Assembly (NCBI RefSeq): GCF_041886205.1
Contig: NZ_CP169029.1
Source of the DNA: Escherichia coli
Lineage (GTDB): Bacteria > Pseudomonadota > Gammaproteobacteria > Enterobacterales > Enterobacteriaceae
DNA length: 64,000 nucleotides
Reading direction: 5' to 3' (one strand)
Below are positions 4,769 to 36,310 of the stretch, in pieces. The translations under genes were made by a program, and so were the position numbers. The stretch's first letter is position 1; each line of letters begins with the position of its first letter. The notes under the pieces were generated by a model. It was given only the letters and a program-made list of their open reading frames with translations, was not told where the DNA came from and searched no databases.

Positions 4769-5484
4769 TGCCAATCATGCAAATAGGCTCGTTACACTTG
4801 CTGGTCAACCGTAAGGCGATTAAGAATCTGCATATCAGCGTGCTGCCGCCTGATGGCAAAGTCCGCGTTTCAGCGCCGGAACATATGACGGAGACGGCGA
4901 TTCGTATGGCGGTTGCTTCACGCTTTCGCTGGATCAGAAAACAGCAGCAGGATTTCGCCAGACAGCCTCGTCAATCAGAGAGGGAAATGGTCAGCGGAGA
5001 GTGCCACTATCTTTGGGGCCGAAGATATCGCCTACTTGTGATTGAGCGTCACGGGCGTCACGAAGTAAAAGTTGCGGGAAATAATAAGCTCCAGCTTTAT
5101 GTTCAACCGGGAACCCGTGATGAAAATAAGGCATTGGCGTTAAGTGAATTTTATCGACATGAACTAAAACAGCAGGTGGCTAAGCTTCTACCTGAATGGC
5201 AGGACCGAATCGGTGTTCCCCTAACATTCTGGGGCATCAAAAAGATGAAAACCTTTTGGGGCACCTGTAACACTACAACAAAACGAATCTGGCTCAATCT
5301 GGAGCTAATTAAGAAGCCGCCGGAGTGTCTGGAGTATATTCTGGTGCATGAACTGGTTCATCTTCTGGAACGTCACCATAATGCTCGCTTCCGGTTGCAT
5401 ATGGATCGGTTTATTCCTGACTGGCGTGAGCGTCGGGATTTGTTAAATAATATGCCGTTAGCGTTTGAGGCATGGGAGTATTGA
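4768..5484 (+). CDS. DUF45 / M48-like zinc metallopeptidase (YgjP-like)
   Basis: 238 aa with HExxH motif (ILVHELVHLLERHH); start overlaps hsdR stop, so it is translationally coupled. Confidence 0.7.
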   Translation: MPIMQIGSLHLLVNRKAIKNLHISVLPPDGKVRVSAPEHMTETAIRMAVASRFRWIRKQQQDFARQPRQSEREMVSGECHYLWGRRYRLLVIERHGRHEVKVAGNNKLQLYVQPGTRDENKALALSEFYRHELKQQVAKLLPEWQDRIGVPLTFWGIKKMKTFWGTCNTTTKRIWLNLELIKKPPECLEYILVHELVHLLERHHNARFRLHMDRFIPDWRERRDLLNNMPLAFEAWEY

Positions 5485-13325: not shown

Positions 13326-14609
13326 TTAGTTACATTTAGCTCTAAGTGTTTGTAGTTTCATCGCAATGAGTAAAAGGACAACAAGAATAAGTGATAACGT
13401 TAAGAGAAGAGCATAGAAACCATTCCAGTGGTATATTTCTATTATTTTAGACAATGGATAGCCAGCCGCGGATGCACCAAGATATGCGAATAAACTAACA
13501 AAACCAGTAGAAGCACCAGATGCATATTTATGTGAGTTTTCAGCAGCTGCCATTGCGATCAGAAATTGTGGACCAAAGATAAAGAAGCCAGTGATGAAAA
13601 ATAACAACGAAAAAACATATTTACTATCGATAGAAACCAACCATAGACATGCAGAAGCAATGATTATACCAATTGTATAAATAACATTCATTTGAGAGCG
13701 ATTGCCCTTAAACAGAATATCTGATCCCCATCCAGCTACGATAGCACCAAAAAAGCCTCCAACCTCAAACATCATTACTGTTGCATTTGCTGTTAGCAAG
13801 TCATATTTATGAGTCTCAATCAAATACAAATTTCCCCAGTCATTGATTCCTGTACGAATAACATAAATAACTGCATATGATATTGCCAATACCCAAATTA
13901 TATTATTTTTAAATATATAATCTTTTAAGATATTCCATTGTGACAACCCTATACCTTGTTCTTCATGATTAATCTCAGCTATATCATTACGCCACTCTCC
14001 AACTGTTGGTAATCCCATCGATCTTGGTCGATCACGCAATAAGAAACATAATAAAATGCCAATAATAACAGCAATGGCCCCCGGAATAATCATGCCATAA
14101 CGCCAACCTAGCCATAAGGCAACACTACCTGATAAAATAGGGATAATTGCTCCACCGATATTATGAGATGTATTCCATATGGACCACCAGAATCCACGTT
14201 CATTTCGGGAATACCAAGTATTTAAAATTTTTGAACACGGAGGCCATCCCCATCCCTGAAAAAAAGCATTAACCATCCATAAAAATATAAACAAAGGTAT
14301 AGATGATGTTAAACCAAACAATATATTGACACATCCAGTCATTATCAATCCAATCCCCATAAACCATCTTGGATTAGAACGATCACCTATAACTCCAGAA
14401 ATAAATTTTGATGCCCCATAAGTTAGATAAAATGCCGTTCCGACCATACCAATATCTGATTTTGTAATACCTAAATCAGATAGCATCTCAGGCATTACGA
14501 AGTTAAAGCTCTTTCGTGTGAAATAAAATACAGCATATCCTATATAGCTCACAATCATTAAATGAAGTCGCCAATATCTATATGTTTTATCAATATCAGT
14601 TTTACTCAT
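13326..14609 (-). CDS. MFS transporter, organophosphate:phosphate antiporter family (UhpC/UhpT/GlpT/PgtP-like)
   Basis: About 427 aa, 12 predicted hydrophobic segments, family-typical motifs (DRSNPRWF, FFQGWGWPP); AT-rich; likely start MSKTDIDK at 14609. Confidence 0.7.
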   Translation of the reverse strand: MSKTDIDKTYRYWRLHLMIVSYIGYAVFYFTRKSFNFVMPEMLSDLGITKSDIGMVGTAFYLTYGASKFISGVIGDRSNPRWFMGIGLIMTGCVNILFGLTSSIPLFIFLWMVNAFFQGWGWPPCSKILNTWYSRNERGFWWSIWNTSHNIGGAIIPILSGSVALWLGWRYGMIIPGAIAVIIGILLCFLLRDRPRSMGLPTVGEWRNDIAEINHEEQGIGLSQWNILKDYIFKNNIIWVLAISYAVIYVIRTGINDWGNLYLIETHKYDLLTANATVMMFEVGGFFGAIVAGWGSDILFKGNRSQMNVIYTIGIIIASACLWLVSIDSKYVFSLLFFITGFFIFGPQFLIAMAAAENSHKYASGASTGFVSLFAYLGASAAGYPLSKIIEIYHWNGFYALLLTLSLILVVLLLIAMKLQTLRAKCN

Positions 14610-14956
14610 TGTTATTTCTTTGTCAGGAGACTCTGAAAATATGGACATATATAACCTCTTTTATTATGAAATATTTTCAATAATAATCCGTTAGTAATCC
14701 TATCATAGGGTAATGCCTCATCATGTTAAAATGATCACATTTATAATCATGTCAAAAAGAACAACAGAAAAAATGATTTAAAATCAATTAAATATAATTT
14801 CAACATATTGTTGTTATTAAAACATTGGTGGTAAATGTAAAGCGAGAACAGTTTGTAACAGTGACTCCTTGCAGACTAAGTTAGAGTCTCCTGATCTTAC
14901 CCAGCAATAGTGGACACGCGGCTAAGTGAGTAAACTCTCAGTCAGAGGTGACTCAC

Positions 14957-21380: not shown

Positions 21381-22053
21381 CAAGCCTTTTTGCACCAACT
21401 GATGTACACAATCAGATTTCAGCCTGTCCGTAATAATTATATTTGATATTACATTAACGCTCTTTAACTGTAGGACAGCACAGCGTAAATTGTTGAATAG
21501 TTCATTTAAAAAATCATAAGGATAAAAAACCAACACTTAAAACATTGTTCTTTTTCAAGAACACATATTTAAATAAAATAACAAACCGCTACCAACTTTA
21601 AAACATTAAAAAAACTGTGAGAGATTACTCTGAAAAGAGTTCATAGCTTTTTAATAAACCATATAAAGTAAACAATACATATGTTAACCCCCCAGAAAAA
21701 ACGTGACAAGAACATAACACCATAAGCAGATACCATATACACGCACACCACCATAACGAATTGGTCACTGGTTCATGACAAACCGTTCATAATTGCTAAA
21801 AATATTAATACACCATCATATAGACTTTCATGTCTAATGAAAAAATATTTATACTCCAGAATAGCCACAACCTTTATAAAATTCAGCTCATTAGAATATA
21901 AATGCATATGCCAATGAACAGAATACATTCTCATCCTTATTGAGGAACATACTGCCTGAGAGAAAAATCATCACTCAGACTTTGAAATAACATTGTCGAA
22001 TTCATATTATACAAAAGGGGAGTCATTCCCCTTTTTTAGCTTAGGTACTCAGT

Positions 22054-22875
22054 TTATAAGGAAATGGCAGAATACTCTGTGTTTATCCATGAGTGTTCCT
22101 TTTCCCAGGTGAATATCCATTTACGTACTGGTCCGGCCATCACGTTAAGGTAATAACTGTCATACCCGGCCATCGTCGCCACCGGGTGGTACCCTTTCGG
22201 CACCATGACCACGTCACGGTTATAGACCGCCATACATTCATCAAGTGTGCGGTCATCGGTATACACCCGCTGCATGCAGAACCCCTGTTCCGGGTTGAGG
22301 CGATGGTAATAGGTCTCCTCCAGATAGCTCTCCTGAGGCGGGTTATTCGTATCGTGTTTATGGCTCGGGTACGAACTGGTACAGCCTTCGTTGGTCCAGA
22401 CCTCGACGACCAGCAGGCTGTCAGCGGGCTTGTCTTCCGGCAAAATATTATGCACATAACGCTGGTTGTGGCCGTTACCGCGCGCTTCGCCATCGATATC
22501 CTGAGGTGCAATCAACCGCGTCGGGTATGTCCCTTTTCCCGGAGCGGTACAGACTGCCAGCTCCAGTTTCGTCAGCGCCTTCACCTGCACTGCCTCCTGC
22601 GGGGTGACGTAAACTGCCCAAGGTTTGATGCGCTCGAACGGGCTCATCCGCTCCCCGATATCAGTAAACTGTGCAGAAGGAGTGCTGATGAAAGCGCGCC
22701 CGGCCACCAGCACCAGACAGCGCTCTTCACTGACAGCGGGCAGCGTCAGTTGCTGCCCTTCCTCAAGTTCATAGGCCTCAAAGCCAACATATCCCCATCC
22801 GGCGCTTTCCGGCGTGACAGACTGAGTCCGCCCCTCAGCGTTCGGCTGTTGCCAGCGTGATAACAAACGTGACAT
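22054..22875 (-). CDS. iolB: 5-deoxy-glucuronate isomerase IolB
   Basis: 273 aa, KduI/IolB cupin-like; located in the iol operon. Confidence 0.8.
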   Translation of the reverse strand: MSRLLSRWQQPNAEGRTQSVTPESAGWGYVGFEAYELEEGQQLTLPAVSEERCLVLVAGRAFISTPSAQFTDIGERMSPFERIKPWAVYVTPQEAVQVKALTKLELAVCTAPGKGTYPTRLIAPQDIDGEARGNGHNQRYVHNILPEDKPADSLLVVEVWTNEGCTSSYPSHKHDTNNPPQESYLEETYYHRLNPEQGFCMQRVYTDDRTLDECMAVYNRDVVMVPKGYHPVATMAGYDSYYLNVMAGPVRKWIFTWEKEHSWINTEYSAISL

Positions 22876-22884
22876 GTCACCTCC

Positions 22885-23811
22885 TCAGATAAGCCCGGCG
22901 TCGCGCGCCAGGCGGCTCAGATTGTTATATCCCAGACGGGCGTAGGTCAGCGGATGGGCGATCGCCGGGTCCTGTTCAGCCTCCACCACCAGCCAACCGT
23001 GATAATCCTGCGTTTTCAGCAGTTGCATAATCGGCGGATAATCCACGCAGCCGTCACCCGGCACGGTAAACACGCCGCTCAGCACCGCGTCGAGGAAGCT
23101 GGTTTTACGGTTTTTGACGTCCGCCAGCACGTCGGCGCGCACATCTTTGCAGTGAACATGATTGATGCGCGATGCCCATCGCTGTGCCACCGCCAACGGA
23201 TCGGCCCCGGCAAAGGTCAGGTGGCCGGTATCCAGCAGTAAACCAACCTCCTCACCCGTGTGGAGCATCAGGTTGTCCACGTCTTGAGCGGACTCAATCA
23301 CCGTGCCCATATGATGGTGGTAAGCAATCTGTACCCCCTGTTGCTGCGTATAGCGGGCGAACACGGTGAGCTTCTCACCATACTCTTTCCAGCATTCCTG
23401 CGGGAAACGTGGGCGCAGGTGAACCGGCGTCTGCTGCTCACCGTGAATGCAGCCACTCACTTCCGCAAAAACCAGTACTTTTGCACCCAGCTCTCGCAGC
23501 AGCGTCAGATGCGACTGCACAGCAGCAATCTCGTCCTCTACACTGCGTTCCAACAGGCGGCCGGAATACCAGCCGGAGACCAACTGCAGGTCGTGGCGCT
23601 GCAAAATGGGGCCGAGCAGGCGCGCTTCTCGCGGGAATTTATTGCCCAGTTCGAAGCCGGCAAAACCGGCCTCTTTCCCTTCACTCAGGCAGGTCTCCAG
23701 AGATGTCTCCGCGCCCAGTGAAGGCAGATCATCGTTCGTCCACGTCAGCGGGTTGATGCCCAGTTGTACACTCATTGTCGTCTCCATTATGCGTGTCCGC
23801 GCTCGCGCCAC
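22885..23811 (-). CDS. iolE: Inosose dehydratase IolE (likely start MSVQLG at 23775)
   Basis: Xylose-isomerase-like TIM barrel; sequence GINPLTWTNDD typical of IolE. Confidence 0.8.
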   Translation of the reverse strand: MARARTRIMETTMSVQLGINPLTWTNDDLPSLGAETSLETCLSEGKEAGFAGFELGNKFPREARLLGPILQRHDLQLVSGWYSGRLLERSVEDEIAAVQSHLTLLRELGAKVLVFAEVSGCIHGEQQTPVHLRPRFPQECWKEYGEKLTVFARYTQQQGVQIAYHHHMGTVIESAQDVDNLMLHTGEEVGLLLDTGHLTFAGADPLAVAQRWASRINHVHCKDVRADVLADVKNRKTSFLDAVLSGVFTVPGDGCVDYPPIMQLLKTQDYHGWLVVEAEQDPAIAHPLTYARLGYNNLSRLARDAGLI

Positions 23812-25691
23812 CAGGCGATAAGCTGCAGGTAGTTGTCCCGGATGCGCGCCACCAACTGCGCATCGTCAATATCGTATTTCAGCCATGCGCGGGAGGCATC
23901 GCCAAACAGCGTGCGCCCCACGGCGAAGCCTTTCACCAGCGCCTGCCCCGCGGCAGCTTTGAAGTCGGCACGCAACTGTTCCGCCGGAGCATCCAGACCG
24001 AGGATCACCACGCCGCGGCAGTGCGGGTCCCGGCGCGCGATAATCTCGCTCAGTGCCGTCCAGCCTTCGGCGGAGAGCGGCGGCAGTTTCCACCAGTCGG
24101 GGTAAATGCCAAGGTTGTAGAAGCGGGAAATGGCACGCAGATAAAGTTCGTCACTGCGCGGCATAGTGGCGGGTAATATCACCTCCAGCAGCAGTTCATG
24201 TCCGGACTGACAGCAGGCGTGGTACACCTCGGCGATTTTCTGCTCCTGCTCCAGACGCAAGCCGTGGGCATCTTCCGGATGGAAAAAGACCAGGCACTTC
24301 ACCACATGCTCCTGCGGCCAACTGATAAGCTGGGTACCAATGTTACCGTGCTCCATCTCCAGCGGACGCGAGCCTGGCAGTTCAATGGGACGACCAATCC
24401 ACCACCCTTCGCCGGTAATGGCGTTCAGCGCATCCTGACCAAAGGTGCCATCGCACAGCAGGCCGGCTTTCCCCTCCAGCCCGGCAGAGCTTGCCGCCTC
24501 TCGGCTGGCCTGCAGGATCAGCTGTTTCAGCGCCGGAATACGCTTAAGCGACGCGCCGCACTGCAGCGCCATATCTTCCAGTTGACTGCGGTGATCGAAC
24601 GCCATCACGCACAGCTCCGGCCATTCGCGGCGGCGGGTGGTCACCCGGTGCAGATGGTTAAGACGCGGGTCAATGTCCGGGCGCGGAACGAGCGCGGCGC
24701 GGGAGAGGTAATCATCCAGCTCAATTTTGCTCGGCATCGCCGGTGCACAGCCGTGGCGCGAGACCACCAGCGCCCCACAGGCGTTGGCGTAGCGGCACGC
24801 CTGTTCCCAGCCCTCGTCGTTCAGGTAACCGCGCAGCAGGCCAGACATAAACGCATCTCCCGCGCCAAGGACGTTAAGCACCTCCACACGCACGCCGGTC
24901 ACCGTCAGGCCGTCATCCAGCCGAGGTGGAATGGCATCGGTATACACCGAACAGCCCAGCGCGCCGCGCTTGCAAACCAGTGTCGCCTTGCTGACGTGGC
25001 GCACCTGCGCCAGCGCCTGCAACGTATCGGTGCTGCCCCCCGCAATGTGAAACTCCTCTTCGGTGCCGACAACGACGTCGAAAAGGTGTAGCACCTCCTG
25101 AAGTTCACGGGTAACCTGTTCGGCAACGATAAAACGCGTTTCGCCGTCTCCTAGAGAGGTTAGTCCCCACAGCACTGGACGGTAGTCGATGTCCAGCACC
25201 GTGCGCACGCCGTGACGGCGGGCGTAATTCAGCGCCGTCAGCACCGCCTCGCGGGTCTGCGGGTGAGAAAGGTGAGTCCCGGTGATGGCAATACACCGTG
25301 CGGAGGCAATGTAGCTTTCGTCCACATCGCTGGCAGTAATCGCCATATCCGCGCAGTTATCGCGATAAAAAATCAGAGGAAAGGTGTCCCGGTCTTTAAT
25401 GCCGAGTAGCACCAGCGCCGTGAGGCGTTCTTTATCGGTGATCAGATGGCTGGTATCGCAGCCCACCTGGTTTAACTCTTCCCGCAGGAAGCGCCCCATA
25501 TGTTCATCGCCAACGCGCGCCAGCATTGACGAGCGTAAGCCCTGACGCGCGGTACCGTACGCCACGTTGCCGGACGAGCCGCCGAGATATTTGGCGAAGC
25601 TCGACACATCCTCCAGGCGGGCACCAATCTGCTGGCTGTAGAGGTCTACCGCCACGCGGCCCATGCATATCACATCAAACTGCTTTTCCAC
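23787..25691 (-). CDS. iolC: 5-dehydro-2-deoxygluconokinase IolC with C-terminal DUF2090/aldolase-like extension
   Basis: 634 aa; N-terminal PfkB-type sugar kinase (GAGDAF motif) plus ~300-aa C-terminal domain. Confidence 0.75.
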   Translation of the reverse strand: MEKQFDVICMGRVAVDLYSQQIGARLEDVSSFAKYLGGSSGNVAYGTARQGLRSSMLARVGDEHMGRFLREELNQVGCDTSHLITDKERLTALVLLGIKDRDTFPLIFYRDNCADMAITASDVDESYIASARCIAITGTHLSHPQTREAVLTALNYARRHGVRTVLDIDYRPVLWGLTSLGDGETRFIVAEQVTRELQEVLHLFDVVVGTEEEFHIAGGSTDTLQALAQVRHVSKATLVCKRGALGCSVYTDAIPPRLDDGLTVTGVRVEVLNVLGAGDAFMSGLLRGYLNDEGWEQACRYANACGALVVSRHGCAPAMPSKIELDDYLSRAALVPRPDIDPRLNHLHRVTTRRREWPELCVMAFDHRSQLEDMALQCGASLKRIPALKQLILQASREAASSAGLEGKAGLLCDGTFGQDALNAITGEGWWIGRPIELPGSRPLEMEHGNIGTQLISWPQEHVVKCLVFFHPEDAHGLRLEQEQKIAEVYHACCQSGHELLLEVILPATMPRSDELYLRAISRFYNLGIYPDWWKLPPLSAEGWTALSEIIARRDPHCRGVVILGLDAPAEQLRADFKAAAGQALVKGFAVGRTLFGDASRAWLKYDIDDAQLVARIRDNYLQLIAWWRERGHA

Positions 25692-25703
25692 GTTGAACCC
25701 TCT

Positions 25704-26837
25704 TCAGACAATGTCATTCACGTTCAGCCAGAGGCCCTGCTGGTGTGAGAGTGCGATGGCATCCAGCACACGCGAGACCTTCCAGCCCTCTTCGAAGTCC
25801 GGCCACATCGGTGCGTCGGTGGCGATGCCGTCTACCAGATCACGCACTTCCACCGTTTTTTGATCGTTAAAGCCGATACCATGACCTGCGCCCATGCAAA
25901 ACGCGCCGTAATCCGGGTGTGCCGGACCGACCAACAGTGTCCGGAACCCCTGACGGTTCACCGGATCATCATGCAGATAGAGCTTTATCTCTGCCATCCG
26001 CTCTTGGGTAAAACTGATCGCTCCTTTGGTACCAGTAATGACGTATGACAGCCCCATCTTGCGGCCGCAGGCGACACGGGAAGTTTCAATGACGCCCTGC
26101 GCCCCGCCCGCAAAGCGCACCATCGCGTGGGCCTGATCTTCATTTTCCACGGTGACCATTTCCGACGATCCGGCCTTTGCCGGACGTGCCGGTACCACAA
26201 TTTTCAGATCGCCACAAACCTGCTCAATCTCTCCCACAAGATACTGGGCCATATTGACGATATGTGCCGCCAGGTCACCCAGAGCCCCCAGTCCGGCGGT
26301 CTCTTTAAAACAGTGCCAGTGAATAGGGGAAAGCGGGTCGGCCATATAGTCTTCGTTGTGGGTTCCGTAGAAGTGGATCACCTCACCAATTTCGCCGCGC
26401 GCAATAATCTCTTTCGCCAACTGTGCCGTCGGGTTTTTCATGTAATTGAAACCCACCAGCGTTTTCACCCCTGCCCGCTTCGCAGCGTCGACCATCTCAC
26501 GCGCGTCGTGGGCATTCAGTGCCAGCGGCTTTTCCGAATAGACGTGCTTGCCGTGGCGGATCGCCTCCAGCGCCATCTCTTTGTGAAGATGGTTAGGGGA
26601 GCAAATATCCACCACATCAATGGCCGGGTCGACCACGAGCACCCGCCAGTCTCCGGTTGAGCGATTGAAGCCAAACGCCTGCGCGCGTTCTGCCGCCAGC
26701 GCCGGATTCACCTCAGCCACCATCTCGCGCACCAGTTTGCCGCGCAGATTGAACACCGTCGGTGCCTGGGCATAGGCAATGGCATGCGCCTTGCCAATAT
26801 ACCCGGTGCCAATCAATCCAATACGAACCTCTTTCAT
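25704..26837 (-). CDS. Gfo/Idh/MocA-family oxidoreductase (second inositol dehydrogenase-like enzyme)
   Basis: Rossmann motif IGLIGTGYIGKAH; ~377 aa from MKEVRIG. Confidence 0.75.
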   Translation of the reverse strand: MKEVRIGLIGTGYIGKAHAIAYAQAPTVFNLRGKLVREMVAEVNPALAAERAQAFGFNRSTGDWRVLVVDPAIDVVDICSPNHLHKEMALEAIRHGKHVYSEKPLALNAHDAREMVDAAKRAGVKTLVGFNYMKNPTAQLAKEIIARGEIGEVIHFYGTHNEDYMADPLSPIHWHCFKETAGLGALGDLAAHIVNMAQYLVGEIEQVCGDLKIVVPARPAKAGSSEMVTVENEDQAHAMVRFAGGAQGVIETSRVACGRKMGLSYVITGTKGAISFTQERMAEIKLYLHDDPVNRQGFRTLLVGPAHPDYGAFCMGAGHGIGFNDQKTVEVRDLVDGIATDAPMWPDFEEGWKVSRVLDAIALSHQQGLWLNVNDIV

Positions 26838-26845
26838 CGTGATCC

Positions 26846-27874
26846 TCACAGTGCGCCGCGACGGCTCTTGGCATAGGTGTCGAATGCCACCGCCAGAACG
26901 ATAATTAATCCGGTGATAATTTGCTGGTAGTAGGCCGAGACGTTCATCAGTACCAGGCCATTAATCAGAATGCCCATGATGATGGAGCCGATGATAGTGC
27001 CGCCGATGCGCCCATATCCCCCCATCAACGACGTGCCGCCAATAACCACCGAGGCAATAACACGCAGCTCAAAGGAGATCCCGGCAACCGCCTCAGCGCT
27101 CCCCAGACGAGCGCTCAGGATGAAGCCCGCCAGCCCCGCCAGACAGCCAATCAGCACATAGACGCTAACCAGCACACGCTTCACGTTTACCCCAGCCAGA
27201 CGTGCCGCCTCCGGGTTGCCACCGATGGCATAGACGAAGCGCCCCCAACGGGTTTTATGCAGTGCCAGATAACCACCAATGGCAACGATGGCGAAGATCC
27301 AGATCGGAATGGAGATGCCGAGCAATTCCCCTCGTCCCCACCAGCGATAACCCTGATCGAAGCCGGCAATCGGCGCACCGTCGTTAATCACGAGCGTCAG
27401 ACCACGCCAGATGGTCATCCCGCCAAGGGTGACGATGAACGGTGGTAGGCGCAGGCGGGTGACGCCCAGACCGTGCAGGAAGCCAATCGCTGTACCCATG
27501 GTCAGACAAATCCCCAGCCCAATCAGCCAGCTCATACCGCCCCAAGCGTTCGGATCGACTGTGGTGAAATTGTCGCCTTTGATCACGTACGCCGCTGTCA
27601 TGGCGCACACTGCCAGAATAGAGCCCACGGAGAGGTCGATCCCAGCGGTCAGAATGACGAAGGTCATCCCCACGGCCATGATCCCGTAGATGGAGACTTC
27701 GGTCAGGATGTTGAAAATATTGCGTTCAGAGAAAAAATTACTGTTCTGCGACTGAAAGAAGATCAGCAGCAGGATCATGAAAATCAGTACCCCGAAGCGC
27801 TCGAAGAAGGCAATGGGATCGATGCGTCCGGCGCGTTTTACCGGGACCTGCGTTTTAGGAATCATCTGCGTCAT
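26846..27874 (-). CDS. Sugar ABC transporter permease (ribose/monosaccharide type)
   Basis: 342 aa, multiple hydrophobic segments, start overlaps upstream gene. Confidence 0.8.
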   Translation of the reverse strand: MTQMIPKTQVPVKRAGRIDPIAFFERFGVLIFMILLLIFFQSQNSNFFSERNIFNILTEVSIYGIMAVGMTFVILTAGIDLSVGSILAVCAMTAAYVIKGDNFTTVDPNAWGGMSWLIGLGICLTMGTAIGFLHGLGVTRLRLPPFIVTLGGMTIWRGLTLVINDGAPIAGFDQGYRWWGRGELLGISIPIWIFAIVAIGGYLALHKTRWGRFVYAIGGNPEAARLAGVNVKRVLVSVYVLIGCLAGLAGFILSARLGSAEAVAGISFELRVIASVVIGGTSLMGGYGRIGGTIIGSIIMGILINGLVLMNVSAYYQQIITGLIIVLAVAFDTYAKSRRGAL

Positions 27875-27885
27875 GAGAAACTCCG

Positions 27886-29433
27886 TTATGCCGCGTTCAG
27901 GGCGTTGTGGTTGATAGCCATCATCGTCATCAGCCGTTCTTCGTTAGCGTCGTCACCGTGGATCTCGCCAGTTAACCGGCCTTCACTAAGGGTGATGATC
28001 CGGTCAGACACCGCCATCACTTCAGGCAGATCGGAGGAGATCACGATCACCGCCACGCCCTTTTTCGCCATATCAAACAGCACCTGGTGCACTTCCGATT
28101 TGGTTCCAACGTCGATGCCACGTGTCGGCTCATCGACAATCAACACCCGTGGATTGAGCGCCATGCAGCGCGCGAGGATAACTTTCTGCTGGTTGCCGCC
28201 AGAGAGCTTACGCACCTCCTGCGTGCTGTTGACCATTTTGATCTGCAGCGCCTGGCGGTAGGACTCAATCAGGTCGTCCTCTTTGCGGGTATTCACAAAC
28301 CAGCGCCACTGCAACAGCGAGGAGAGGCAGGAGAGCGACAGGTTGTCGCGAATCGACAGACCCAGCACCGCCCCCTCTTTTTTGCGATCTTCCGGCACCA
28401 GCGCCAGCCCTTGCTCCAGCGCATAAAGTGGGTCACGCGGCTGGTACGGCACGCCGTCCAGCTCAAAGCTGCCGGTGGTAAAGGCGTCGGCGCCAAACAG
28501 GCAGCGCGCTACCTCAGTACGACCAGCCCCCACCAGCCCAGCGATACCCAGAACTTCCCCTGCATGGACGTGAAAACTGATGTCATGCAGGGCGATGCCG
28601 TGTGGATCCAGCGGCGGTTTTTCCCGGCTTAACCCCTTCACCGACAAACGGACAGGTTTGTCTTCATGGTGGGTTTCGCTGGCAGGGCGGCGGTTAAAGG
28701 CCACATCACGCCCTACCATCAGGCGGATCAACTGCTCTACGTTCGTCTCCGTCACTGCGCCGGTGCCGGTGAAACGGCCATCCTGGAAAACGGTGAAACG
28801 ATCGCAAAGCTGGAAAACTTCATGCAGACGGTGAGTAACGTAAATAATGCTCACGCCGCGGTTTTTAAGCTCCCGCACCACGCGGTGCAGGCTTTCCACC
28901 TCGCTGTCACTCAGGGCGGCGGAGGGTTCATCCATGATGATCAGCCTGGCATTGAGGGTCAGCGCCCGGGCAATCTCCACCATCTGCTGCTGGGCCACGC
29001 TCAGACGGGCGACTGGCGTGGTGGGTGCGACATTCAGTTGCAGATAATCGAGAATCACCTGCGCTTCCTGATTGACCGCTTTTTCGTCGACGATCAGGTT
29101 ACGTTTACGCGGTTCGCGTCCGAGAAACATGTTTTCCGCAACGGTCATATTGGGCAGCAGGTTGAATTCCTGATAGATGGTGATAATGCCCTTGTTCTGC
29201 CGTTCTACCGGGGAGTCGTCCACCGGCAGCGTTTCGCCATTGAACCAGATCTCCCCGCGCGTTTGTGGCTGTGCGCCCGCGAGTGCCTTCAACAGCGTGG
29301 ATTTCCCAGCGCCGTTTTCGCCCAGCAAAGCGTGAATTTCACCCGTGCCGACGGTGAGCTGGGCGCTGCTCAGCGCCCATACGCCGGAAAAGCTTTTTGC
29401 CAGGTCGGTTACTTTCAGTAAGGGTTGCGACAT
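27886..29433 (-). CDS. Sugar ABC transporter ATP-binding protein (duplicated ABC domains)
   Basis: 515 aa; Walker A GENGAGKST, signature LSGGNQQK. Confidence 0.85.
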   Translation of the reverse strand: MSQPLLKVTDLAKSFSGVWALSSAQLTVGTGEIHALLGENGAGKSTLLKALAGAQPQTRGEIWFNGETLPVDDSPVERQNKGIITIYQEFNLLPNMTVAENMFLGREPRKRNLIVDEKAVNQEAQVILDYLQLNVAPTTPVARLSVAQQQMVEIARALTLNARLIIMDEPSAALSDSEVESLHRVVRELKNRGVSIIYVTHRLHEVFQLCDRFTVFQDGRFTGTGAVTETNVEQLIRLMVGRDVAFNRRPASETHHEDKPVRLSVKGLSREKPPLDPHGIALHDISFHVHAGEVLGIAGLVGAGRTEVARCLFGADAFTTGSFELDGVPYQPRDPLYALEQGLALVPEDRKKEGAVLGLSIRDNLSLSCLSSLLQWRWFVNTRKEDDLIESYRQALQIKMVNSTQEVRKLSGGNQQKVILARCMALNPRVLIVDEPTRGIDVGTKSEVHQVLFDMAKKGVAVIVISSDLPEVMAVSDRIITLSEGRLTGEIHGDDANEERLMTMMAINHNALNAA

Positions 29434-29484
29434 CAGCCTGCTCCTTATTTATGGGGAGCCGCCCGTACGGCGGCTCCAGACAAA

Positions 29485-30414
29485 TCAGTTACCGGCCTCA
29501 GCAATACGCTCAGCCTGTTGCAGGTTCTCTTTGGTGATCAGCGTCGGCGGATAGTCCGCACCGGTGATAGTTTTTTTCTCACGCACGTTAGCCACCAGTT
29601 GGCTCATCGCCGTGGTCACCGCAAAGCCGGGACGCTGATCCGCCGTAACCGCCAGCCAGCCGTCGCGCACGCGGGCCAGTGCTTCCGGTACCGCATCAAA
29701 ACCGGTGACCAGGATTTCACCCGGTTTCACACCCTGACTCTGCAGCGCTTCAATCGCCCCCAGCGCCATATCATCGTTGGCAGAGAGGATCACCTGAGGA
29801 CGTTTTGGCAGCGACGGCAAAACGCTTTCGACAATGCGCATCCCTTCCGAGCGCATCCAGTTGCCGGTCTGATCGGCGACGATCTTGTACATATCCCCGC
29901 CAGCCTTCAGGCTGTCGCGGATCCCTTTGGTGCGTTCAATGTTGGAGGAGGAACCCGGTTGACCGGTCAACAGAATGATCTCCGCGCCGTTGGGGAATTT
30001 GGTTTTGACGAAGTCGCCAATCGCCTGGCCGCCCTTGTAGTTGTTGGCACCAAAGTGCGGCACTTTTTTCTGGCTGTCGACAGAGCGGTCAAGCGTAACG
30101 ACCGGCAGCTTCGTATCCTGAATTTCATCTACCGCACTGGAGACCGCGTTCACATCGTTCGGGGAGACAATAAAGCCCTGCGCACCACGGGTGATGGCGT
30201 TTTCCAGGTCAGCCACCTGCTTCGGTGAGCTGCCCTGACCGTCCAGTACCTGAAGTTTCACCCCCATCTCTTTTGCGGCTTTCACCGCCGTGCGCTGCAT
30301 GTGAACTTCAAACGGCATGGCCAGGTTTGGCGTACTGAAAACAATTTGCTCGTTTTCGGCTATGGCGGCCCCGGATGTCATGGCGATTAGGGCGGCTAAG
30401 ATCAGTTTTTTCAT
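29485..30414 (-). CDS. Periplasmic sugar-binding protein of the ABC importer (putative inositol-binding)
   Basis: Signal peptide MKKLILAALIAMTSGAAIA; ATG at 30412-30414; the longer upstream ORF extension is rejected. Confidence 0.8.
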   Translation of the reverse strand: MKKLILAALIAMTSGAAIAENEQIVFSTPNLAMPFEVHMQRTAVKAAKEMGVKLQVLDGQGSSPKQVADLENAITRGAQGFIVSPNDVNAVSSAVDEIQDTKLPVVTLDRSVDSQKKVPHFGANNYKGGQAIGDFVKTKFPNGAEIILLTGQPGSSSNIERTKGIRDSLKAGGDMYKIVADQTGNWMRSEGMRIVESVLPSLPKRPQVILSANDDMALGAIEALQSQGVKPGEILVTGFDAVPEALARVRDGWLAVTADQRPGFAVTTAMSQLVANVREKKTITGADYPPTLITKENLQQAERIAEAGN

Positions 30415-30445
30415 TATTATGTCTCTCTGTGTAGGGTTGTTGTGT

Positions 30446-31432
30446 TTAGAGGACGATCTCACGCTGGCAACGCAGTGATTCCAGCGCTTTATCCGCGAGG
30501 TACAGCGCACGTTCACCATCATCGCCGCTGCAATCAGGCACCGCTTCGCCGCGCAGAACCGCAACAAAGTGCTCCCATTCCGCTGCGTAAGCGGATTTGT
30601 AGCGTTGCAGGAAGAAGTGTTCCGGCAGCGCGCTGGTGCAACCCTGTTTGCCGTAGTGCTGCACCTGGTTTTCAAGGATATTGCCCGCGCACAGCAGCCC
30701 TTCGGAACCGTGTAGCTCCAGGCGCTGGTCGTAGCCGTATGAAGAGCGGCGACTGTTGACGATGGTCGCCATCGCGCCGGAGGCATATTTCAGAACGATA
30801 AATGCGGTGTCGATATCTCCCGCTTCGCCAATCGCCGGATCCACCAGATTGCTGCCCTGGGCATACACCGACACCGGCTCTTCACCCATGATGAAGCGTG
30901 CCATGTCAAAGTCGTGGATGGTCATATCACGGAACATGCCGCCGGAAACACGCACGTACACCGCAGGCGGTGGAGACGGATCGCGGGAGATGATCAGCAG
31001 TGATTCCGGTTTGCCGATACGCCCGGCCTGAGTGTCGGTTTTCACGCGACGGAACTGTGGGTCAAAGCGGCGGTTAAAACCGATAAACAGCGGTACGTCA
31101 TACTCTTTGACCACTTTCAGGCAGTCGCGTACGCGGGCAAGATCAAGGTGTACCGGTTTTTCACAGAAAATGGCTTTGCCGTAACGGGCGGCCATTTCAA
31201 TCAGATCCGCGTGGGTGTCGGTCGCGGAGGCGATCAATACGGCATGAACGTTCGGGTCGGTCATCGCCTCATCCAGGCTCTGCTGGCGCGCCTGATACTG
31301 TGTCGCGAGACGCGTGGCGAACTCCTGATTCGGGTCTACCACAGACCAGAGCGTGGTCGCACTATGGCTGGCGATGTTAGCTGCATGTACCTGGCCAATT
31401 CGGCCAGCGCCCAGTAAAGCAATGTTAAACAT
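30446..31432 (-). CDS. iolG: myo-Inositol 2-dehydrogenase IolG (Gfo/Idh/MocA family)
   Basis: 328 aa; N-terminal Rossmann motif ALLGAGRIGQVHA. Confidence 0.8.
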   Translation of the reverse strand: MFNIALLGAGRIGQVHAANIASHSATTLWSVVDPNQEFATRLATQYQARQQSLDEAMTDPNVHAVLIASATDTHADLIEMAARYGKAIFCEKPVHLDLARVRDCLKVVKEYDVPLFIGFNRRFDPQFRRVKTDTQAGRIGKPESLLIISRDPSPPPAVYVRVSGGMFRDMTIHDFDMARFIMGEEPVSVYAQGSNLVDPAIGEAGDIDTAFIVLKYASGAMATIVNSRRSSYGYDQRLELHGSEGLLCAGNILENQVQHYGKQGCTSALPEHFFLQRYKSAYAAEWEHFVAVLRGEAVPDCSGDDGERALYLADKALESLRCQREIVL

Positions 31433-31626: not shown

Positions 31627-31656
31627 AAACTGTACCATCCCCTCTCCCGTTGGGAG
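31627..31656 (-). terminator. Perfect 14-bp-stem palindrome, probable terminator after iolD
   Basis: CCATCCCCTCTCCC-GTT-GGGAGAGGGGATGG; T-rich run follows on the minus strand. Confidence 0.5.
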
Positions 31657-31716
31657 AGGGGATGGGTGAGAGGAAAAAAGAAAAATGAAATGAAAATTTC
31701 GTTACGACAGGAAAAC

Positions 31717-33642
31717 TCAATACTGACGAGCTTTTTTCACCTGAGCCTGTGTTTGCTCGGCGGCCTGGCGCACTGCTGGCGACTCTGCCACCTGTGCGTT
31801 GCCGGTTCGCCACCATGACGCGTAATCATGGGTCATGGTTTTTGGTAGCACTTTGATGTCGAGGAGCGTCGGTCCCGGGTGAGCGCGCGAGGCTTCCAGC
31901 GCCGCCAGCAGGCTTTTCTCATTATGTACCCGCCATGCGCGGCAACCGTAGCTTTCCGCGTTTTGCGCAAAATCGACCTTCACCAACGGCCCGTCAAGCT
32001 GACCTGTTTTCGGATTACGGTAACGATTTTCTGTGCCAAAACTCCCCATTCCGTGCCCCATCTGCAGGTTATTAATGCAGCCAAAGCTGGCGTTATCAAA
32101 CAGCAGAATGGTGACCTTAATTCCCTCCTGTACGGCAGTTTGCAGCTCTGAGTGCAGCATCATGTACGAACCATCGCCTACCATGGCATACACCGGCTGC
32201 TGAGGTTTTGCCAGCTTCGCACCAATAGCCGCTGCGACCTCATACCCCATGCAGGAGTAACCATACTCCAGATGGTAACTGTCAGGCGTTTTAACCTGCC
32301 AGAGGCGTTGCAAATCCCCTGGCAGCGATCCGGCCGCCCCCACCACAATGGCGTTATCCTCAATATGCTGGTTAATGAGCCCCAACACCCGCGTCTGGGT
32401 CAGGTGTGTGTTGAGCGTTTCACCGTATTCCATTAGCTGTGCATCAAGGTGCCCTGCCACTTCGGGAACGTCGTCAGGATGCCACTGGCGTTCCCACAGT
32501 CGACAGCATTCATCGTGCCAAGCGGATTTCGCATGGGCAATCGCCTCCCCCCAGCCACTACGATAATCTTTCAGTGCGTGGGTCAACGCTGTCAGACCAG
32601 TTCGGGCATCGGCAATGAGCGCGGTGGCATCCAGCTTCAAGGAGTCAAACTCAGCCACGTTCAGCAGCAGGAACTCGACGTCGGGATGAGAAAAGAGCGC
32701 CTTAGAGCCGGTAGTAAAATCCGTCAGGCGCGTGCCGATGCCAATCACTAAGTCAGCCTGCGGCGCAAGCTGGTTGGCAGCCATTCCGCCCGTCACGCCC
32801 ACCCCGCCCAGATTAAGCGGGTGGTCACTTACCAGCGCCCCCTTACCGGCCTGGGTTTCGGCAAACGGCAATTGCAGCACTTCAACAAATTCCCGTAACG
32901 CCTCATGCGCACCGGAGTAACGCACGCCACCGCCGCACACCACCAGTGGACGGCGCTTGCGGGAAATCAATGCATGAGCCTGCGCCAGTCGCTGCGGGTC
33001 AGGCGGACGGCGTTCAATATGATGCACCCGACGCGCAAAGAAACTCAGGGGGTAATCCCAGGCCTCCCCCTGCACATCCTGAGGTAGGCAAATGGTCACC
33101 GCCCCTGTATTTGCGGGGTCAGTAAGCGTTCGCATCGCACTTAACATCGCGCTCATAAGCTGTTCAGGACGGTTGATGCGGTCCCAGTAGCGGGAAACCG
33201 GGCGGAAGCAATCGTTGGTACTGATGCTGAGATCGTGATACTGCTCGATCTGCTGCAACACGGGGTCAGGCTGGCGGCAGGCGTAGATATCCCCTGGCAG
33301 TAGCAGCAGTGGAATGCGGTTCGCCGTGGCCGTCGCTGCCGCCGTCACCATATTGGCAGCGCCAGGCCCAACGGATGAGGTGACAGCAAAAATACGCTGA
33401 CGGCGATGCTGTTTGGCGAATCCCGTCGCCATATGGGCAATCCCCTGCTCGTTACAGCCTTGCATCACCTGCAGATGACCAGGATCCTGCTCCAGCGCCT
33501 GGCCGATACCGAGCACGTTACCGTGCCCAAAGATCGTTGCCACGCCCTCCACAAAGGGCGTTTCTTTACCATCAACGCTAACATATTGTTGGTTAAGAAA
33601 TCTGACCAGAGCCTGGGCCATAGTCATACGTTCGGTTTGCAT
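31717..33642 (-). CDS. iolD: 3D-(3,5/4)-trihydroxycyclohexane-1,2-dione hydrolase IolD (TPP-dependent)
   Basis: 641 aa; thiamine-diphosphate enzyme motifs (GDGSYMM). Confidence 0.85.
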
Positions 33643-33653
33643 AAAACCCCCTG

Positions 33654-35159
33654 TCAGCCCAGAGTCGGCATGGAGAACGCTGCACCTGTCTCCTGCTGCA
33701 TTTCCGGCCAGCGTGCAGTGATGGTTTTCATTCGGGTGTAGAAACGCACGCCATCGTTCCCGTGAACATTGAGCGCGCCAAAAATGGAACGTTTCCAGCC
33801 ACCGAAACAGTGGAATGCCATTGGCACCGGGATCGGCACGTTGACCCCCACCATACCCGCCTGCACCTCTTCACAAAAGCGGCGTGCGCAGCCACCGTCA
33901 CGGGTGAAAATGGCCGAGCCATTACCATATTCGTGTCGGTTAATCAGATCCACCGCGCTGGCGTAATCTGCTACGCGCACCACAGAAAGCACCGGTCCGA
34001 AAATTTCTTCTTTATAGATGGTCATCTCCGGGGTGACGTTATCGAACAGAGTCGGCCCAACGAAATAGCCCTGCTCGTGCCCTTTCACGCTGAGGCCACG
34101 CCCGTCCACACGCAGGTTAGCCCCCTGAGCTTCGCCACTGTCGATATAGCCCAACACTTTGCTGCGGTGTGCGGCGGAGATCAGCGGCCCCATCTCGTTT
34201 TCTGGCGTCTGGTTCAGGCCAGGTCCGACGCGCAGCGAAGCGATCTTTTTTTCCAGCCGGGCGCAGAGTTCATCAGCCGTTTTATCGCCAACCGCCACCA
34301 CCACGGAAAGCGCCATGCAGCGTTCTCCTGCCGCACCATAAGCTGCGCCCATTATGGCGTTTGTCGCCATATCCATATCGGCATCCGGCATTAAAATGCA
34401 GTGGTTTTTCGCACCGCCGAGCGCCTGACAGCGCTTACCGTGGGCGGACGCAGTCAGGTACATGTATTCGGCAATCGGTGTTGAACCGACAAAACTGACG
34501 GCCTGCACGCGCGGGTCGGTCAGGAGCACATCAACGGATTCTTTATCGCCCTGCACCACGTTGAATACGCCGTCCGGCAGGCCTGCCTCTTTCAGCAGTT
34601 TCGCCAGCGCGAGCGCCAGAGACGGATCTTTTTCCGACGGTTTCAGCACGAAGGTGTTGCCTGTCGCCAGAGCTATCGGGAACATCCACATTGGCACCAT
34701 CGCCGGGAAGTTAAACGGCGTGATCCCGGCGCAGACCCCGAGCGGCTGCATCAGTGAGTGGCTGTCGACACCTGTGCCAACGTTCGCAGAGTGTTCGCCT
34801 TTTTGCAGATGTGGGATGCCGCAGGCGAATTCTACCACTTCCAGACCACGGGTCAGTTCACCTACTGCATCTGAGAAGACCTTACCGTGTTCTTCACTGA
34901 TAATACGGGCCAGACGCACCATATTCTCTTCAAGCAACGCTTTGAAGCGGAACATCACACGCGCGCGCTTGAGTGGAGCAAAACGTGCCCACGCGGGAAA
35001 CGCCAACTGTGCTGCGGCAATCGCCTGTTCGGTTTCCTGTGCCGTACTCATCACCACCTGGCGAATCTGCTCGCCAGTGGCCGGGTTGAAGATAGCCTGA
35101 ATGCGCTGGCCTGAACCGGTGACACATTCGCCGTGAATAAAATTCGCTACCGTCTCCAT
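33654..35159 (-). CDS. iolA: Methylmalonate-semialdehyde dehydrogenase IolA/MmsA
   Basis: 501 aa aldehyde dehydrogenase with catalytic Cys context and FTGST-like motif. Confidence 0.85.
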
Positions 35160-35449: not shown

Positions 35450-36310
35450 ATGACGACAGCAACCAGCCTGAACGAACTACAAAAGCAAATCCGCGATCGC
35501 TACGATAGCCTGAGCAAAAGGCTGCAGCAGGTCTCCCGCTATGTACTGGATAATACGAACAGTGTCGCGTTTGATACGGTTGCGGTCATAGCCGAACGTG
35601 CCGATGTTCCACCCTCTACACTGATTCGTTTTGCCAATGCCTTTGACTTCACCGGCTTCAACGAAATGAAACAGTTATTTCGTATGCACCTGGTGGAGGA
35701 AACCGCCAGCTACAGCGATCGTGCGCGACTGTTCCGCGAAATGGAGAGCGAAGCCGTACCTGAAACGCCGCTCGATATTTTGCAGGAGTTCGCCAGTTCG
35801 AACTCGCAGGCGCTGCAGCAGTTGGCTGCCCGCGCCGAACCGGAGATGCTGGAGCACGCCGTACAACTACTGGCCTACGCCGACACCATTTACATCGCCG
35901 GATTACGCAGATCCTTTAGCATTGCTGCTTATCTTACCTATGCTTTAAGCCACCTAGAGTGCCGCCCTATTCTGCTTGACGGGATGGGCGGCATGCTGCG
36001 CGAACAGATCAGCCGTATTAAGGCGTGCGACATTGTGGTGTCGATCAGTTTCTCGCCGTACGCGGAAGAAACGGTGATGGTCAGCAAAACCGCCGCCAGC
36101 GTCGGCGCTCGGCAGATTGTGATTACGGATAGCCAGATCAGCCCACTGGCAACGTTCAGTGATCTCTGCTTTGTGGTGAAAGAGGCTCAGGTGGACGCAT
36201 TTCGGTCTCAGTCGGCAACATTGTGTCTGGTGCAGTCGTTAGTGGTCGCGCTAGCTTACCGTTTAGGAGATAAAAAACATAATAATACCCAGGAAAACAG
36301 TAACCAATAA
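35450..36310 (+). CDS. iolR: RpiR/MurR-family transcriptional regulator IolR (HTH + SIS domain)
   Basis: 286 aa; divergent from iolA. Confidence 0.75.
   Translation: MTTATSLNELQKQIRDRYDSLSKRLQQVSRYVLDNTNSVAFDTVAVIAERADVPPSTLIRFANAFDFTGFNEMKQLFRMHLVEETASYSDRARLFREMESEAVPETPLDILQEFASSNSQALQQLAARAEPEMLEHAVQLLAYADTIYIAGLRRSFSIAAYLTYALSHLECRPILLDGMGGMLREQISRIKACDIVVSISFSPYAEETVMVSKTAASVGARQIVITDSQISPLATFSDLCFVVKEAQVDAFRSQSATLCLVQSLVVALAYRLGDKKHNNTQENSNQ

Follow-up and report, generated by a model that had tools for sequence, protein, structure and literature searches.

A predicted bifunctional IolC-DUF2090 kinase-aldolase in a myo-inositol catabolic island of Escherichia coli

The window, that is, the whole stretch of 64,000 nucleotides analysed here, belongs to an Escherichia coli genomic island that is present in 53 of the 5,426 complete genomes and that carries a myo-inositol catabolic (iol) gene cluster. 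Except for the regulator, the genes described below lie on the minus strand. The cluster contains iolB (22054-22875; TIGR04378, 321.5 bits against a cutoff of 205, and RefSeq), coding for the 5-deoxy-glucuronate isomerase that acts one step before the kinase, and iolE (22885-23775; TIGR04379, 428.5 against 290), coding for myo-inosose-2 dehydratase, the ATG of which, placed according to RefSeq and the sequence, is situated 11 nt past the stop of iolC. Directly upstream of iolC lies a gene for a Gfo/Idh/MocA oxidoreductase (25704-26849), recognized by the Pfam model GFO_IDH_MocA and scoring below all NCBIfam equivalog cutoffs. Next to it, Pfam, NCBIfam and RefSeq indicate a sugar ABC transporter composed of a permease, an ATPase and a periplasmic binding protein (26846-30414), which is presumed to take up inositol. 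Further members are iolG for inositol 2-dehydrogenase (30446-31432; TIGR04380, 440.9 bits against 355), iolD for trihydroxycyclohexane-1,2-dione acylhydrolase (31717-33642; TIGR04377, 934 bits against 715) and iolA/mmsA for a CoA-acylating (methyl)malonate-semialdehyde dehydrogenase (33654-35159; TIGR01722, 672.9 against 448.5), which uses the aldolase product malonate semialdehyde. A regulator of the MurR/RpiR family is annotated by RefSeq on the plus strand (35450-36310), divergently and in an IolR-like position. The pathway set iolG, E, D, B, C and A, together with a transporter and a regulator, is therefore contained in the cluster.

The iolC gene of this cluster is a fusion. It consists of one uninterrupted open reading frame of 634 codons on the minus strand, running from a GTG start at 25691 to a TAA stop at 23787, and the plus strand of the same interval has stops throughout. 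A Shine-Dalgarno sequence, AGAGGG, is positioned 6 nt 5' of the GTG, right behind the stop of the preceding gene, and RefSeq gives the identical protein, WP_000414795.1, at the same coordinates. Pfam assigns residues 6-321 of this protein to PfkB (PF00294; E 7.6e-45) and residues 324-631 to DUF2090 (PF09863; E 3.2e-147). The NCBIfam model NF047869, which combines these two domains in this order on one polypeptide, is covered from position 4 to position 585 of its 586 positions and reaches 942.5 bits, its cutoff being 600; the gene sits, moreover, in an iol cluster with neighbours above their equivalog cutoffs. A preceding reading of the sequence only had described a product of 634 residues, roughly twice as large as a PfkB kinase on its own, in which IolC is joined to a C-terminal domain of about 300 residues, and had named PfkB and DUF2090/aldolase as the domains to search for. 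The reading frame and the two Pfam spans, with both domains matched, make this description of size and domains exact, the C-terminal domain corresponding to residues 323-634. The strand, which had been left unstated, is the minus strand. In the AlphaFold2 (AF2) model of the full-length protein (pLDDT 94.8, pTM 0.91), a low-confidence linker is absent, and the junction between kinase and DUF2090 is continuous and well packed. On the basis of the reading frame, NF047869, RefSeq and the model, the gene is predicted to encode a bifunctional 5-dehydro-2-deoxygluconokinase/5-dehydro-2-deoxyphosphogluconate (DKGP) aldolase.

The N-terminal half (residues 1-322; 24726-25691) is an IolC kinase of the PfkB carbohydrate kinase family. 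It scores 430.5 bits against a cutoff of 300 with TIGR04382 (iolC_N), and both hallmark motifs are present: a GG at G36-G37 and a GAGD at positions 276-279 with the catalytic D279 (codon at 24855-24857). G37, G276 and D279 are invariant across 41 fused homologues. Among PDB sequences, the kinase half is most similar to 2qcv (E 7e-51), which is a putative 5-dehydro-2-deoxygluconokinase. Stand-alone IolC proteins, such as IolC of Bacillus subtilis and 2qcv, thus resemble the N-terminal 322 residues of the fusion, including the PfkB GG and GAGD motifs, but do not have its C-terminal barrel of 312 residues.

This C-terminal half (residues 323-634; 23787-24725) is predicted by AF2, with a pLDDT of 96.2, to fold into eight beta/alpha units. 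When the model is compared with the PDB by Foldseek, class I aldolases are retrieved with E values of 2e-12 to 1e-9 and TM scores of about 0.7. The best match is the sulfohexulose-1-phosphate aldolase 8tnf (E 2e-12, TM 0.73), followed by LacD, YihT and rabbit muscle fructose-bisphosphate (FBP) aldolase, so that the top matches are solely Schiff-base aldolases of class I that release dihydroxyacetone phosphate (DHAP). For 8tnf and LacD, TM scores of 0.68-0.74 and E values of 2e-12 to 1e-10 place DUF2090 among the (beta/alpha)8 barrels. At the sequence level the relationship is remote, with 13-17% identity to the proven aldolases found by Foldseek. A phmmer search of PDB sequences with the C-terminal half alone gave no match and a profile was needed; the profile made from 41 DUF2090 sequences reaches LacD chains (E 8e-9 to 1e-7), pairing the Asp, Lys and Glu motifs, and also reached 8tnf. 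The Pfam model PF01791 (DeoC/LacD) does not match the domain even at E <= 10, while it matches YihT at 1e-57; DUF2090 (PF09863) is therefore to be considered as a sister family outside PF01791. Membership of a class II aldolase family was not detected either, since Pfam gives PfkB and DUF2090 only and the fold matches class I. The earlier suggestion that the C-terminal half is aldolase-like is thus well supported by the AF2 model, the Foldseek and profile matches, and the aligned catalytic residues. Stand-alone DUF2090 proteins start at the same 'MPS..EL' boundary.

The predicted active site can be described by comparison with LacD and YihT. Five residues stand out: D366 (AFDHR, at the end of beta1; codon 24594-24596), a conserved active-site aspartate that corresponds to AFDQR in LacD and to D22 in YihT; K465 (VVKCL, beta4; 24297-24299), a conserved active-site lysine corresponding to the lysine of LacD 'aVKfLl' and to YihT K124; E503 (LLLEV, beta5; 24183-24185), a predicted general acid/base corresponding to the LacD glutamate and to YihT E159; K535 (PDWWKLPP, predicted beta6; 24087-24089, codon checked), aligned with YihT K193; and R593 (GFAVGR, after beta8; 23913-23915), aligned with YihT R253. 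In domain numbering these are D44, K143, E181, K213 and R271, and they align to YihT D22, K124, E159, K193 and R253 in three modes of MAFFT. The Asp, Lys, Glu and Arg pair with LacD/YihT residues, as expected for an aldolase of this type, and all five residues are invariant in the 41 fused homologues, which share 34-88% identity. In SeYihT, K193 was trapped crystallographically as a Schiff base and R253 binds phosphate in the structure (PMC8006165). By analogy, K535 is predicted to be the Schiff-base lysine and R593 is predicted to bind phosphate. K535 (WWKL) falls within the predicted strand 533-536, in agreement with a position on beta6. A different pairing was given by hhalign, which, comparing the DUF2090 profile with YihT as a single sequence, placed K213 on YihT K201 instead of K193, eight residues off, with 51% probability; the Schiff-base lysine is therefore assigned from the MAFFT alignments and from where the predicted strand lies. 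In that same hhalign alignment, a gap of six residues, probably spurious, stands just ahead of the Schiff-base lysine. E503 and K465 correspond to LacD E164 and K126, which are cited by Price et al. (PMC9007349). The predicted roles of K535 and R593 are an addition made here, as they do not appear in the relevant passages of that 2022 paper (PMC9007349). Furthermore, DUF2090 has invariant residues that are specific to the family, namely H367, K389, D414 and W534, with R434 being nearly invariant.

LacD (5ff7, 3mhg, 3kao), YihT (1to3, 7ag7) and 8tnf thus share with DUF2090 the (beta/alpha)8 fold, at a TM score of about 0.7, and an arrangement with Asp on beta1, Lys on beta4, Glu on beta5, a Schiff-base Lys on beta6 and a phosphate Arg on beta8. 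They produce DHAP from a ketose phosphate, and the same release is predicted for DUF2090. There is also a parallel in their association with a PfkB kinase: LacC/LacD and YihV/YihT are genetically paired, whereas DUF2090 is fused covalently to its kinase. In other respects they differ. The identity between the PF01791 enzymes and DUF2090 is just the 13-17% already mentioned, their model misses DUF2090, and the substrate of DUF2090 is predicted to carry in its distal half a carboxylate (malonate semialdehyde) where those of LacD, YihT and 8tnf carry a phosphate or sulfonate.

No other aldolase gene was found by Pfam, NCBIfam or RefSeq annotation in the iol cluster or in the rest of the window. 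A separate class II aldolase hidden in the window was considered as well, and was rejected on two grounds: what RefSeq annotates in the matching genome, and Pfam searches on uncovered open reading frames of at least 90 aa. What the sequence-only reading had said of the cluster, that a separate aldolase gene is missing, consequently holds for the whole window. The E. coli genome also encodes, at other places, FbaA, GatY and KbaY, class II aldolases from the IolJ family that could in principle contribute. IolJ of B. subtilis is, as recent papers restate, a member of the metal-dependent (class II) family of fructose-bisphosphate aldolases. It has the same proposed reaction (DKGP to DHAP and malonate semialdehyde) and the same position in the pathway as DUF2090, but it is metal-dependent and encoded by a separate gene, while DUF2090 is of the Schiff-base class and fused, and sequence similarity between the two was not detected. 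The earlier label of an 'IolJ-type' aldolase is accordingly appropriate for the function and inappropriate for the homology: with DUF2090 in class I and IolJ in class II, the former is a non-homologous replacement.

On this basis, it is very probable that the fusion unites a kinase and a DKGP aldolase, and thereby two consecutive steps of myo-inositol catabolism, on one polypeptide. We infer the substrate, the roles of the residues and the activity from what can be observed directly: the architecture, the fold, the conservation of catalytic residues, and the facts that the window contains no further aldolase and that the rest of the pathway is complete. In the searchable literature, no assay of enzyme activity turned up for a DUF2090 domain, and it is for this reason that aldolase activity and substrate are deduced. 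In the proposed mechanism, the N-terminal PfkB domain (IolC) would use ATP to phosphorylate 5-dehydro-2-deoxy-D-gluconate at C6, giving DKGP. In DUF2090, K535 would be joined by a Schiff base to the C5 keto group of DKGP, adjacent to the new C6 phosphate; E503, K465 and D366 would take part in proton transfer, and R593 would hold the phosphate. The C3-C4 bond of DKGP would then be split, yielding DHAP and malonate semialdehyde, and the latter could be converted to acetyl-CoA by IolA from the same cluster. DUF2090 would in this way stand in functionally for the unrelated class II IolJ of Bacillus. The intermediate may also be handed over from one domain to the other, the two being tightly packed.

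Alternative explanations have to be weighed against this kinase-aldolase assignment. It could be imagined that DUF2090 uses its aldolase fold on another substrate or for another chemistry, for example, epimerisation or a transaldolase-like transfer on a phosphorylated keto-sugar, and that the cleavage of DKGP falls to a class II housekeeping aldolase whose gene lies elsewhere. Several specificities are indeed represented in the class I barrel family, direct enzymology of DUF2090 was not found in the searchable literature, and a 2026 paper still ascribes the DKGP step of another bacterium to promiscuous class II FBP aldolases. However, the fusion to IolC, and once to IolB-IolC, links DUF2090 to the step after the kinase, the half-site for DHAP is invariant (the Schiff-base Lys, the phosphate Arg and the glycine-rich beta7/beta8 loops), and the keto group of DKGP sits exactly beside the phosphorylated terminal carbon. 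The fusion with IolB is a protein of 919 residues, IolB-IolC-DUF2090, that unites three consecutive steps and provides support of the Rosetta-stone kind. Furthermore, as reported in passages of Price et al. (PMC9007349), nine bacteria specifically need their IolC-DUF2090 fusion for growth on myo-inositol and have no IolJ-like protein. Taken together, a different chemistry seems unlikely. The published fitness phenotypes are those of the whole fusion, and the two halves are not separable by them.

Still less probable is that DUF2090 is catalytically inert and attached to the kinase for a structural or regulatory purpose. In one subfamily of IolC-DUF2090-like fusions, the Asp and the Schiff-base Lys have both been lost, and one member of this subfamily is located outside any iol cluster; inactive or repurposed versions therefore do exist. 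The E. coli fusion, by contrast, retains every catalytic residue, and the invariance of these residues in the 41 fused homologues, even at an identity as low as 34%, indicates selection on catalysis. Finally, stand-alone DUF2090 proteins and separate kinases occur in other taxa, and two such genes might have been merged by an assembly or frameshift artefact. This is refuted, and may be regarded as having a negligible probability, because 46 complete E. coli genomes have the identical frame with at least 99% identity, the PfkB-DUF2090 architecture recurs in thousands of database proteins of the same length (630-660 aa) in Enterobacterales, Vibrionaceae and beyond, and the modelled junction is continuous with a pTM of 0.91.

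The kinase-aldolase fusion is already known. It is named by NF047869 and annotated by RefSeq as WP_000414795.1, and the aldolase role of DUF2090 was proposed in 2022 by Price et al. from fitness data on nine fusions, in passages that also call the DUF2090 form the commonest version of this aldolase in bacteria (PMC9007349). Being common, named in databases and previously proposed, the E. coli protein is therefore ordinary. The island encodes a complete myo-inositol pathway in which the aldolase step is not missing, and the importance of the assignment lies mainly in correct annotation. Since recent papers keep IolJ as the canonical enzyme, a direct assay of DUF2090 would be a small but worthwhile addition. 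A bolder reading, to which we give little credence, is that kinase and aldolase constitute a rigid unit (as a pTM of 0.91 and the lack of a flexible linker might suggest) passing DKGP straight from one active site to the other, and that DUF2090 represents a distinct, carboxylate-recognising branch of the class I DHAP aldolases. If true, its study would yield, for the first time, enzymology and a structure of the form that is, according to these passages of Price et al. (PMC9007349), the commonest one of the enzyme in bacteria.

In comparison with the IolC-DUF2090 family as defined by NF047869, there is no difference of substance, apart from the E. coli member riding on a genomic island. BPHYT_RS13910 of Burkholderia phytofirmans PsJN, as described in the passages of Price et al. 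that deal with it (PMC9007349), has the same two domains and the same cluster context, and its Lys/Glu pair, K493/E531, corresponds to K465/E503 of the E. coli fusion, with a spacing of 38 in both.

The iolC-DUF2090 gene lies on the minus strand at 23787-25691, where the ORF listing of the window gives a 634-aa product with a GTG start. In translation, this minus-strand frame is free of stops; reading the interval on the plus strand gives many. RefSeq places the gene (product WP_000414795.1) at identical coordinates. An AGAGGG sequence is located 6 nt 5' of the GTG, directly past the TGA of the preceding gene, and iolE starts 11 nt downstream of the TAA; the close spacing to both neighbors places it in a tightly packed operon. 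Pfam assigns residues 6-321 to PfkB (E 7.6e-45) and residues 324-631 to DUF2090 (PF09863, E 3.2e-147). The ORF and the domain search thus bear out the sequence-only reading of a PfkB kinase with an additional C-terminal domain of about 300 aa, which had left out the strand. Since the full-length AF2 model is confident (pLDDT 94.8, pTM 0.91) and has no low-confidence linker, the two domains are predicted to pack rigidly.

The IolC-DUF2090 bifunctional fusion is already known. NCBIfam NF047869 models exactly this bifunctional protein (score of the ORF 942.5, cutoff 600), and RefSeq gives the identical protein the bifunctional name. According to Price et al. 2022 (PMC9007349), nine such fusions are specifically important for myo-inositol fitness in bacteria without IolJ, the Bacillus subtilis aldolase for the same pathway step; inositol utilisers are enriched for DUF2090; an alignment with the class I aldolase LacD keeps the Lys126/Glu164 pair; and DUF2090 is considered probably the commonest form of 5-dehydro-2-deoxyphosphogluconate (DKGP) aldolase. 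This assignment is repeated in a later Pseudomonas paper, and IolJ is still taken as the canonical enzyme in some recent papers. The searchable literature yielded no enzymatic characterisation of the DUF2090 domain.

The genomic context is a myo-inositol catabolic gene cluster. On the minus strand, iolA/mmsA (33654-35159), iolD (31717-33642), iolG (30446-31432), iolE (22885-23775) and iolB (22054-22875) are assigned by NCBIfam and RefSeq, and an ABC transporter (26846-30414) and iolC-DUF2090 by Pfam, NCBIfam and RefSeq. A divergent RpiR-family regulator (35450-36310, RefSeq) is the sole plus-strand gene of the cluster. Every canonical step has a gene above its NCBIfam equivalog cutoff, with the exception of the aldolase step. 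As had been proposed, the cluster lacks a separate aldolase gene: it contains no second aldolase-family gene, and none turned up in what RefSeq annotates for the colinear region or among the uncovered ORFs scanned against Pfam.

The C-terminal half itself has the fold of a class I aldolase. The AF2 model of residues 323-634 (pLDDT 96.2, pTM 0.93) consists of eight strand-helix units, and its top Foldseek matches in the PDB are exclusively class I DHAP-releasing aldolases: sulfohexulose-1-phosphate aldolase 8tnf (the best, E 2e-12, TM 0.73), LacD, YihT and rabbit-muscle FBP aldolase. A DUF2090 profile built from 41 diverse domains (29-52% identity to the query) likewise matches class I tagatose-bisphosphate aldolases (E 8e-9 to 1e-7) and 8tnf (4e-8), pairing AFDHR with AFDQR, VVKCL with aVKfLl, and LLLEV with fLEvL. 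Membership of Pfam PF01791 was ruled out; DUF2090 is a sister family. Of the earlier designation "IolJ-type aldolase", the aldolase role is supported by fold, residues and context, whereas membership of the IolJ family is not: Bacillus IolJ is a class II enzyme, and the DUF2090 half, being class I and unrelated, resembles it in function only. The evidence supports the DUF2090 half as a predicted DKGP aldolase, with a small residual doubt that touches DKGP aldolase activity alone.

The catalytic residues were predicted by comparison with E. coli K-12 YihT, in which K193 lies within GADLYKVEMP. In the Salmonella enzyme, Lys193 has been trapped as a Schiff base and the phosphate is bound by Arg253 (PMC8006165). 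Three MAFFT modes align YihT D22, K124, E159, K193 and R253 with domain residues D44, K143, E181, K213 and R271, corresponding to D366, K465, E503, K535 and R593 of the full-length protein. None of the five varies among 41 fused homologues, whose identity goes down to 34%. The hhalign alignment is concordant for the Asp, Lys, Glu and GFxxGR motif; with a probability of only 51%, it displaces the Schiff-base lysine by a single short gap. This shift is regarded as an alignment artefact, because K535 is on the predicted sixth strand (533-536), directly following the fifth helix, which is also its place in the family. A carboxylate half-site may be formed by five family-specific residues: H367, K389, D414 and W534, all invariant, and R434, nearly so.

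In DKGP, the C5 keto group adjoins the phosphorylated C6, an arrangement equal to C2/C1 of fructose-, tagatose- and sulfofructose-phosphates. A Schiff base at C5 followed by C3-C4 cleavage would release DHAP and malonate semialdehyde, and IolA of the cluster acts on malonate semialdehyde. The conserved DHAP half-site is in keeping with the proposed cleavage.

The fusion is widespread. In a protein homology search, every one of the 8,000 candidates scored is a match at E <= 0.001, and the best 120, those listed, are without exception PfkB+DUF2090 fusions, many named bifunctional enzyme. Of the top 150 representatives at 50% identity, 45 have the size of the fusion and about 50 a stand-alone size, the latter including many fragments; genuine stand-alone DUF2090 proteins begin with MPS/MPT..EL, precisely at the fusion's AMPSKIELDDYL junction. 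One representative, P0131 (919 aa), carries IolB (KduI/IolB family), PfkB kinase and DUF2090 in one chain, uniting three consecutive inositol-pathway steps. Fusion abundance, stand-alone boundary, triple fusion and rigid model each lend independent support to a functional link between kinase and aldolase.

Some relatives diverge. In a subfamily of similar fusions of 583-635 aa (P0236, P0250, P0257, P0264, P0269), the active-site Asp is lost (AFDHR becomes S/T/H-F/L-G-x-H, e.g. SFGYH), as is the predicted Schiff-base Lys (PDWWKL becomes PDWWQ/L). The beta4 Lys is retained; as the beta5 acid, four of the five have Glu and P0264 has Asp. One member (L004:810-2672) is a lone gene next to a TetR regulator near lptD-surA-pdxA, outside any iol cluster. 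A role as DKGP aldolase is improbable for these proteins, and automatic annotation could wrongly call them "bifunctional".

Other features of the cluster deserve mention. Directly upstream of iolC-DUF2090, a Gfo/Idh/MocA oxidoreductase (25704-26849, minus; Pfam, substrate without assignment) has levoglucosan dehydrogenase as top NCBIfam match (365 bits against a cutoff of 650) and reaches only 122 bits with the iolG model; it may oxidise another inositol isomer. The 284-nt iolD-iolG gap contains a strong hairpin (31635-31665, minus; 14-bp stem with 10 G-C pairs, 3-nt loop, T-run after), which suggests a terminator or attenuator splitting iolA-iolD from an iolG-to-iolB transcription unit. The mechanical ORF of the periplasmic binding protein (29485-30786, minus, 433 aa) runs into the 3' end of iolG; this is an over-extension, given the later RefSeq start (29485-30414, 309 aa) and a Pfam match that does not start before residue 148 in the long form.

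E. coli ZYB62 (NZ_CP074366.1) carries the 22000-26900 region at 100% identity; the window is colinear with it between 6160 and 38294 (99.8%) and different elsewhere. Among 5,426 complete genomes of E. coli, just 53 have the 22000-26900 region (46 at at least 99% identity, 7 at 80-90%), and some iol cluster copies (7 places) are on plasmids. The cluster is inside a mosaic genomic island (6160-47136) packed with IS66, IS3, IS110, IS1 and pseudogenes. The IS-rich island, a tyrosine integrase (45699-46901) adjoining core genes, and a G+C content of 57% for the cluster and 61.6% for the iolC-DUF2090 ORF, above the 50% of the window, indicate horizontal acquisition. An uhpC-like MFS sugar-phosphate sensor/transporter gene (13326-14648, minus) is isolated between IS elements, with no uhpAB or uhpT partners nearby. 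At the island edge, an ORF for a DarT-like ssDNA thymidine ADP-ribosyltransferase (51-590, plus) overlaps one with macro and SocA/Panacea domains (575-1654, plus), which looks like a DarT/DarG-type toxin-antitoxin pair; together with the type I restriction R subunit (1673-4768) and M48 peptidase (4768-5484) that follow, it makes up a small defence islet.
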